A stretch of DNA of 60,298 nt from a virus. Lineage: Duplodnaviria; Caudoviricetes. A model generated the notes under the pieces. That model ran no database searches, was not told where the DNA came from, and worked only from the letters and a program-made list of their open reading frames with translations. The translations under genes were made by a program, and so were the position numbers. Shown in pieces: positions 14,887-15,454 of this stretch (position 1 is the first letter of the stretch; every line of letters starts with the position of its first letter). The DNA lies in the IMG/VR virus record IMGVR_UViG_3300030397_000466, positions 1 through 60,298 of that record, one strand, 5' to 3'.

Positions 14887-15454
14887 ATGCTTGATTTAAT
14901 CAGACAAAAAGCAGGAACGTCTGACGTTCGGAGGTGTCTTTGATGCCTTAGCAACGCCAGGCGAATATCAAGAAACCCTTGAACACAAAGGTAGCCTAAC
15001 CTATGTTAAGATACCTTACATGCTCTACCTTGCCAGGCAAGCTTGGCCGGACCTCAGATGAACTATTAAGAATAGCGGTATTCACGAAGACTCAGTTTGG
15101 GTTCACTTAGAAATTCAGTGAACAGAAAATGATAAACCCATGACGGCTGCCACAATAGATGGATCAGCCATTAAAAAGATCAAAGGCACTGAAAAACACC
15201 TCGAACTGGGTAACGACTTTAAGGGTGCTGTAACTGAAGCACTTAGAAAACTGCTAAATCAAGCACTTGGAGTGTGCAACGACGTATATATTGCACATTT
15301 CCCTGAGCTGTCAAAAGATTCTGACGCCTATAAAACTATTGCAAAAGCTATGGGTGAAGATAAGCTCAAAAATTTACAAATCAACAAAGAAAATTACAAG
15401 CCGTTCTACAAGGCAGCATATCAAAAACTAAAGAAGGAATCGAATAATGAATAA
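14887..15454 (+). CDS. Rad52/Sak-like ssDNA annealing protein, recoded (+1 frameshift and two in-frame TGA), about 188 aa
   Basis: KGSLTYV...W...KGAVTEALRK..LGV..DVY; AAGGA RBS at ATG 14887; CTT-TGA at 14938-14943; TGA at 15059 and 15119. Confidence 0.75.
14930..14944 (+). promoter_or_regulatory. prfB-type +1 frameshift cassette
   Basis: GGAGG-TGT-CTT-TGA-T versus prfB AGGGGG-TAT-CTT-TGA-C; +1 frame is the Rad52 frame. Confidence 0.8.

Follow-up and report, generated by a model that had tools for sequence, protein, structure and literature searches.

The textbook +1 frameshift of bacteria is that of prfB, where release factor 2 (RF2) is sensed: in the accounts available to us, an element resembling a Shine–Dalgarno (SD) sequence is followed three nucleotides (nt) downstream by CTTT and a TGA, usually with C as the next base, and this C is highly conserved since TGAC terminates poorly. 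A U at this +4 position has been reported to strengthen termination (PMC5289835). The PRFect authors state that the CUU-stop +1 cases in RECODE all come from prfB, and the 350 annotated forward cases in phages among its training data are mainly tail-chaperone-type genes. Here we describe a prfB-like site at the 5' end of a gene for a Rad52-like annealing protein on a phage contig (IMG/VR record IMGVR_UViG_3300030397_000466), whose entire length of 60298 bases is the window analysed. We propose that ribosomes here, on balance probably, undergo a programmed +1 shift at CTT_T, and that expression of the gene depends on the decoding of UGA. The slip, its efficiency and whatever decodes UGA are what we infer; the weight of the proposal lies in the architecture of the locus and in a slip signal that is unique in the genome and stands at the only place needing a +1 change. 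A search of the literature available to us returned no paper joining a phage Rad52 annealing protein with a ribosomal frameshift.

The locus resembles prfB in several respects: a short 0-frame open reading frame (ORF) with its own ribosome-binding site (RBS) and ATG closes with CTT TGA; CTTT is preceded, at a distance of three nt, by a purine-rich SD-like element; the functional protein is encoded in the +1 frame, which lacks a separate start; and the first +1 codon is Asp, as implied by the consensus CTT_TGA_C (Table 1). An earlier, sequence-only reading of this DNA had described an ATG at 14887 behind an AAGGA RBS, 18 codons up to CTT TGA and a GGAGG three nt upstream, all of which were found at these positions. 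It had further equated the site with the RF2 geometry, and this applies to the SD-like element, the CTTT three nt downstream and the TGA, i.e. to three of the four sequence elements of prfB, but not to the base after TGA, which is T (14944) and not C. The phage site also differs in its SD-like element (GGAGG as opposed to AGGGGG), in its leader of 18 codons (the premature TGA of E. coli prfB is given as position 26) and in an mRNA that needs two more UGAs as sense codons. Since the product is a recombination protein and not RF2, there is no feedback loop through the product, and the term autoregulatory, used in the same reading, does not hold. By analogy, the phage site may work like the prfB site, but it is not a member of the prfB system. 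That the cassette is known essentially only from prfB, as had also been stated, agrees with the RECODE cases summarised above. Phages do use forward shifts, and Listeria phage PSA reportedly shifts at a stop codon. The known phage +1 shifts, however, lie near the 3' ends of capsid, tail and tail-chaperone genes and make C-terminally extended variants, whereas the site described here stands at the 5' end, would be obligatory for any product and carries the SD-plus-CTT_TGA signal.

The +1 frame is open from 14900, directly after a TAA (14897–14899), and contains no ATG, GTG or TTG until ATG 15020, i.e. over 40 codons, which bears out the earlier statement that it lacks a canonical start of its own upstream of the site; a good RBS with an ATG is present only in the 0 frame. 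A four-letter step at CTT_T gives a single open product of 188 residues, and the signal lies inside the sole 45-nt overlap in which a +1 change can join both frames. With both strands of the window considered, the pattern GGAGG-N3-CTTTGA has a single match (0.08 expected), and at least one match occurred in 8 of 100 dinucleotide shuffles; by itself, CTTTGA shows no enrichment in the window (43 matches versus 57 expected). The sense strand contains 26 copies of GGAGG, 7 of these within 15 nt of a start codon, so that the chance of finding it 3 nt before a given codon is about 3e-4. An SD core of at least 4 nt precedes 48 of the 66 starts listed by hand in this genome, from which it follows that the host uses SD pairing.

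That the +1 frame encodes a Rad52/Sak-like protein, with a predicted annealing activity, is supported by the modelled fold and by transitive homology. A homology search of 1.84 billion representatives gave 36 matches at E ≤ 0.001, two of which (P0003 and P0018) were discarded as repeat artefacts and not relatives. Besides these two, the window's own fragment (P0001) and the weaker matches P0024, P0026, P0028, P0030, P0032, P0035 and P0036 were left out of the alignment, which comprises the window protein and 26 of the 36 matches (27 rows). As in Rad52/Sak-type annealing proteins, 12 of the 27 aligned rows match Pfam Rad52_Rad22 (best 9.9e-15), and the only Protein Data Bank matches of the AlphaFold2 model at E ≤ 0.001 are three human RAD52 chains (template modelling score 0.36–0.52), so that the gene identity given earlier stands. 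In contrast to such proteins, the window protein on its own remains below every Pfam threshold (no family at E ≤ 0.01). The model of the +1-frame read has a mean predicted local distance difference test score (pLDDT) of 90.9, with residues 1–9 below 50. The closest relative, P0002, is 53% identical and is a gene call of 140 residues whose start corresponds to residue 33; identity to all aligned relatives but one is 20–30%, and by these comparisons the window protein represents a divergent branch of the Rad52-like family.

A profile built from 25 relatives scored 124.0 bits when the frame was read from Asp-14942 and 98.5 bits when it was read from ATG 15020; the 26 codons ahead of this ATG therefore carry about 25 bits of family homology, and the nearly invariant Thr-Pro and two Tyr of the family are found there. 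On the strength of this drop in score and of these residues, the startless stretch 14942–15020 is judged to be coding, and translation must therefore pass into the +1 frame somewhere from 14900 to about 14945, with no canonical start available. How it would enter is indicated, weakly, by homology upstream of the site. Homology in the +1 frame upstream of the site, which had been named as a possible refutation, is absent: read from 14900, this frame reaches 125.2 bits, with the profile alignment beginning at ALATP. The shift product reaches 126.5 bits, and its alignment extends 8 profile positions further back, through SDVRRCL, which aligns to the basic-x-x-hydrophobic motif of the family. Its AlphaFold2 model has a mean pLDDT of 91.7 and an N-terminal helix at residues 12–20. 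The family alignment thus weakly favours the 0 frame up to the site.

Entry by unconventional initiation, in which the 18 codons are merely a leader and the Rad52-like protein starts by re-initiation or at a non-canonical +1-frame codon, is unlikely. A +1-frame CTG (14921–14923) has an AGGA ending 4 nt upstream, the GGAGG itself is a good SD sequence located 7 nt ahead of the first codon after the site, and N-termini in the family are variable, P0008 beginning just 5 residues before the conserved motif. However, a spacing of 4 nt is below that seen at the starts of this genome, and the Rad52-frame codons that are rightly spaced from GGAGG (TTT, GAT and GCC) are not known starts. The well-placed ATG 14943 and TTG 14940 belong to the third frame, which meets a stop after two codons, and initiation of this kind leaves the position of CTT_TGA, exactly 3 nt after GGAGG, unexplained. 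These third-frame starts, ideally spaced from GGAGG, open only a two-codon ORF (ATG CCT TAG), a candidate minigene (14940–14951) that is buried in a predicted hairpin. This hairpin pairs the GGAGG stretch with a downstream CCUU and exposes the UUU of the slip site in a 3-nt loop; the 141-nt fold has z = -2.38, and 4 of 200 shuffles fold equally well. As an inference from the fold only, the hairpin might shield the internal SD and the out-of-frame ATG 14943 from free 30S subunits.

A shift at another point of the overlap (14900–14945), by +1 or -2, with the CTT_TGA match as a coincidence, is considered very unlikely. Any shift within these 45 nt would yield nearly the same protein, and candidates exist in the rare-looking CGG AGG (14929–14934) and in the A5 run of CAAAAAG (14905–14911). 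In E. coli, rare Arg codons in tandem can induce shifts of the +1 type, but this phage carries its own tRNA-Arg(UCU). A5 followed by G is a site of the -1 and not of the +1 type, and the run is too short for transcriptional slippage, which has a length requirement. In addition, residues of the 0 frame are supported by the profile alignment as far as the Leu codon.

The letters themselves were compared with Logan contigs, which are separate assemblies of runs X1, X2 and X3 from three samples of one aquatic study, possibly including the source of the window. The contigs of these runs cover 14724–15805 at word depths of 316, 211 and 177, respectively, with no other letter and no gap at the shift site; agreement is at the level of the consensus, as such contigs can mask rare variants. 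A further run, X4, spans only short parts without the shift site, and none of the runs listed for this stretch was an RNA run. An extra base upstream of the site, introduced by sequencing or assembly, would make the true gene a single ORF, and dropping one A from the A5 run would indeed fuse ATG 14887 to the Rad52 frame. An indel at CAAAAAG had been suggested as grounds for rejecting the shift, and none was seen in the three assemblies. Because three separately assembled runs at 177–316x give identical letters, an assembly indel is unlikely as the cause of the frame break. The four in-frame TGAs discussed below are confirmed in the same assemblies, and we regard an error of this kind as scarcely credible. 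In X2 and X3, low-depth contigs (5–10x; 15597–16030, without the shift site) carry a variant that is about 10% different over the gene at 15447–15977; a related strain therefore co-occurs in these samples.

The sequence-only reading had treated TGA as a plain stop, and this could not be maintained. The Rad52 frame needs two further TGAs as Trp, and about 1 kb downstream the gene for a DnaB-like replicative helicase needs two more: it is open in full from ATG 16455 only if TGA 16563–16565 and TGA 16713–16715 are sense codons, and its phrog_19 match spans residues 18–393, i.e. it starts upstream of both. In the three nearest homologues of full length, Trp stands opposite TGA 16563 (MAFFT, BLASTP). 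For TGA 16713, BLASTP places Trp opposite with P0041 but not with P0040, and MAFFT puts it one column away. Together with the Rad52 columns, which were counted by hand from the alignment, the comparisons make the Trp position appear firm for three of the four codons, 16713 being supported by one of three alignments. No other long frame in the window needs a TGA to be read through. Trp codons in the two genes are TGA (4) and TGG (3), compared with 0 TGA and about 269 TGG elsewhere (Fisher p = 1.5e-7). Stops in a greedy set of 77 ORFs are TAA (53), TAG (19) and TGA (5), one of the five TGA-ending ORFs being antisense within the helicase gene. TGA thus ends 4 of about 76 genes (2992, 3330, 9586 and 11576), all in the plus-strand early region; in the structural block, none of the 33 minus-strand ORFs ends in TGA or contains one in frame. 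Because two of the four TGA-ended genes have ATGA stop-start overlaps (2991 and 3329) that carry an RBS for the next gene, TGA seems, from the gene arrangement, to terminate still in places. Code 25 (TGA as Gly) was ruled out, since the TGAs fall in Trp/Phe and not in Gly columns, and a genome-wide code 4 is doubtful in view of the two ATGA overlaps and of about 270 TGG versus 4 TGA. As four TGAs are needed as Trp, UGA carries two meanings in this phage, and the logic of RF2 sensing does not transfer unchanged from prfB.

Phages in which TGA is reassigned to Trp have been described by Borges et al. (preprint 10.1101/2021.08.26.457843); there, recoded codons concentrate in late (structural and lysis) genes, a suppressor tRNA is usually encoded, sometimes along with release factor 1 (RF1) and tryptophanyl-tRNA synthetase (TrpRS), and a standard-code relative uses TGA as a stop in 4 of 146 cases. 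The present phage is similar in having in-frame TGAs at Trp positions while its other genes fit the standard code, and in having nearly abandoned the TGA stop (4 of about 76 genes, compared with the 4 of 146 reported for that relative). It differs in that the four recoded codons occur only in two replication and recombination genes, with none in the 33 ORFs of the minus-strand structural block, and in that no suppressor tRNA was found.

Alternatively, the Rad52-like and helicase genes may both be broken by a genomic frameshift and nonsense mutations, so that fragments or nothing are made and the phage copes alone or with a helper. The five disruptions are confined to two adjacent genes, a suppressor tRNA was not found, and gene callers gave only fragments of both genes (104 residues for the Rad52-like P0001 and 294 for the helicase P0037). 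However, each of the four nonsense codons is a TGA that coincides with or adjoins a Trp position. If nonsense changes arose at random, all four would be TGG to TGA with a probability of 7e-7, or of 1.8e-3 if only transitions are considered, which makes random decay a poor explanation. Neither gene contains a TAA, a TAG or a second frameshift, family residues are intact on either side of every break, the genome is abundant in three samples (177–316x), and the lone frameshift coincides with a complete slip signal. Loss of both genes is therefore held to be improbable.

Based on these data, we propose the following hypothetical mechanism for the programmed shift, in which (i) ribosomes would initiate at AUG 14887 and translate 18 codons; (ii) once CUU occupies the P site and UGA the A site, GGAGG, 3 nt behind the P-site codon, would base-pair with the 16S anti-SD; (iii) peptidyl-tRNA-Leu would move from CUU onto UUU; and (iv) the two later UGAs of the Rad52 frame, like the two of the helicase gene, would have to be read as Trp. 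Both proteins would then be made only in cells in which UGA is a slow or weak stop that is partly decoded by Trp-tRNA, a condition that would also favour the +1 slip; low RF2 activity would promote slip and Trp insertion alike. Under this mechanism, UGA in one mRNA is skipped once and read as Trp twice, which is most readily understood if UGA is a weak codon with slow decoding. By extension, one CUU_UGA slip and four UGA-for-Trp codons could act as a 'UGA gate', limiting the recombinase and the replicative helicase to conditions of weak UGA release, to which the late genes, avoiding TGA as a sense codon and as a stop, would be indifferent. We regard this extension as tentative and rather doubtful. 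The weak-UGA state could be the host's, through low RF2 or a Trp-reading tRNA, or it could be imposed by the phage early in infection.

Several observations weigh against a programmed shift with UGA read as Trp. If UGA were decoded efficiently as Trp, the A site would not be 'hungry', and most ribosomes would continue in the 0 frame to a TAG that lies 17 codons further; if termination at UGA were efficient, hardly any ribosomes would pass the two downstream UGAs and complete the protein. The T after TGA replaces the conserved C of prfB, and the shift product surpasses the +1-frame read by small differences (1.3 bits and 0.8 pLDDT units), which were given little weight. The sole tRNA on the contig is Arg(UCU); Rfam at E ≤ 1 gave no second tRNA and no tRNA(UCA) on this contig, which may be incomplete. 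No RF1 or other release factor and no TrpRS domain was found in the 35 proteins scanned against Pfam, the 10 large minus-strand proteins being compared with PHROGs only and some 30 small ORFs lying outside these scans. Finally, searches of viral contigs with the Rad52-like protein and with a two-row alignment found no DNA relatives.

Other routes to decoding UGA, and other searches for relatives, gave little more. No hairpins were found behind the four Trp-position TGAs in 70-nt stretches from 3 nt ahead (z = -0.21, -1.69, 0.00 and +0.63), and the folding of these stretches does not surpass that of shuffles, which lends no support to selenocysteine or to readthrough driven by structure. Relaxed ARAGORN calls (5 extra weak ones at an 85% threshold, 101 with introns allowed) were treated as noise. 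A tRNA-like element lies at 1747–1811, within a 611-nt ORF-free gap. Its acceptor stem comprises 7 bp, its D arm is canonical, and its T arm shows a GGTTCGAATCC loop region; the anticodon arm is reduced to 3 bp of stem and a loop of 4 nt. The element surfaced as an antisense match of another Rfam model (E = 0.49) and was called neither by ARAGORN at default settings nor by the Rfam tRNA model. A cloverleaf-like fold at 2133–2204 (z = -2.34) includes a stem of 8 bp resembling that of an acceptor, a hairpin similar to a T arm and, at its centre, an arm in which a stem of 6 bp carries an 8-nt loop without UCA. A long hairpin followed by a T run was also seen at 1950–2043. As hidden suppressors, the two tRNA-like folds in the gap (1669–2281) were rejected because of their abnormal anticodon arms and the lack of UCA. 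With respect to relatives, a search of viral contigs with the helicase gave a single match of 28% identity, which was not used. Metagenome contigs searched by alignment and by a degenerate DNA pattern of a 14-residue invariant peptide yielded no relatives, and neither did genome contigs searched with the terminase. INPHARED phages contained no homologue by blastn, or by tblastn with the Rad52-like protein; tblastn with the terminase gave at most 27% identity among the matches listed, all of them under 60%.

Table 1. Features of the shift locus and of its genomic surroundings (positions refer to the window).
Feature	Position	Strand	Remarks
Ribosome-binding site AAGGA	14876..14880	+	6 nt ahead of ATG 14887
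0-frame leader ORF	14887..14943	+	ATG (14887-14889), 18 sense codons, TGA; from translation
Internal SD-like GGAGG	14930..14934	+	spacer TGT, 3 nt, before CTT codon
Proposed shift site CTT_TGA	14938..14943	+	CTT 14938-14940, TGA 14941-14943; slippery CTTT 14938-14941
First +1 codon GAT (Asp)	14942-14944	+	after proposed slip
Predicted RNA hairpin	14918..14963	+	stem of GGAGG stretch with downstream CCUU; 3-nt loop is UUU of slip site
Rad52-like annealing protein body	14942..15454	+	+1 frame; stop TAA 15452-15454; first in-frame canonical start ATG 15020
In-frame TGA, Rad52-like gene	15059..15061	+	W in P0002; column W 17, F 8, I 1 of 26 relatives
Second in-frame TGA, Rad52-like gene	15119..15121	+	W in P0002; W in 18 of 26 aligned relatives
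DnaB-like replicative helicase gene	16455..17645	+	Pfam DnaB_C, 3.8e-44; about 1 kb downstream of Rad52-like gene
PD-(D/E)XK nuclease gene	12340..13068	+	PF12705, 1.9e-09
AIG2-like gamma-glutamyl cyclotransferase	7931-8353		peptide-ligase type run
phiEco32-like COOH-NH2 ligase	9624-10238		peptide-ligase type run
RimK-like ATP-grasp, weak match	10700-11578		below Pfam cut-off, 19.5 vs 21 bits
Amidoligase-like protein	13007-13966		peptide-ligase type run
Class-II glutamine amidotransferase	13954-14877		peptide-ligase type run

The Rad52-like gene lies inside a replication and recombination block, with the PD-(D/E)XK nuclease and the DnaB-like helicase as neighbours. Exonuclease and annealase genes are usually paired, and by this pairing the nuclease is a possible exonuclease partner of the annealing protein. 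Early, replication- and recombination-type genes occupy the plus strand from about 120 to 21.7 kb, and the terminase, portal and major head protein genes are located in a minus-strand block (21.7–58.3 kb). The recombination genes are directly preceded by a series of genes of the peptide-ligase type (7931–14877), which make up a predicted modification system. Two adjoining giant proteins of 1255 and 2453 residues are encoded at 21742–32863 (minus strand), without a PHROG match at 1e-5. The large terminase has 883 residues (52584–55235, minus strand), its halves (residues 61–418 and 432–868) match different terminase PHROGs, and its best cultured relatives are Vibrio phages at 27% identity, where the annotation is 'DarB-like antirestriction'. 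Contig bases 93–106 are the reverse complement of the final 14 bases (60285–60298); short inverted terminal repeats may therefore flank the phage genome, of which the contig may represent nearly the whole length. A direct terminal repeat was not found. The first 90 or so bases of the contig are GC-richer than the sequence after them, and bases 1–17 resemble a random-amplification primer.

In summary, our analysis suggests that a site with the architecture of the prfB frameshift precedes a phage Rad52-like gene whose full-length product would depend on how UGA is decoded. Standard gene callers truncate the Rad52-like and helicase genes, which is of concern for annotation. If the reading is true, the slip signal is portable, and phages can couple gene expression to the UGA termination capacity of the cell. 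Should the 'UGA gate' also hold, this would be the first prfB-type cassette outside prfB, and the recoding programme would be a mirror image of the late-gene recoding in gut phages. With a 60-nt cassette and four codons, the locus offers a small, testable system for how stop-codon reassignment starts in phages and for what decodes UGA where no suppressor tRNA is visible.

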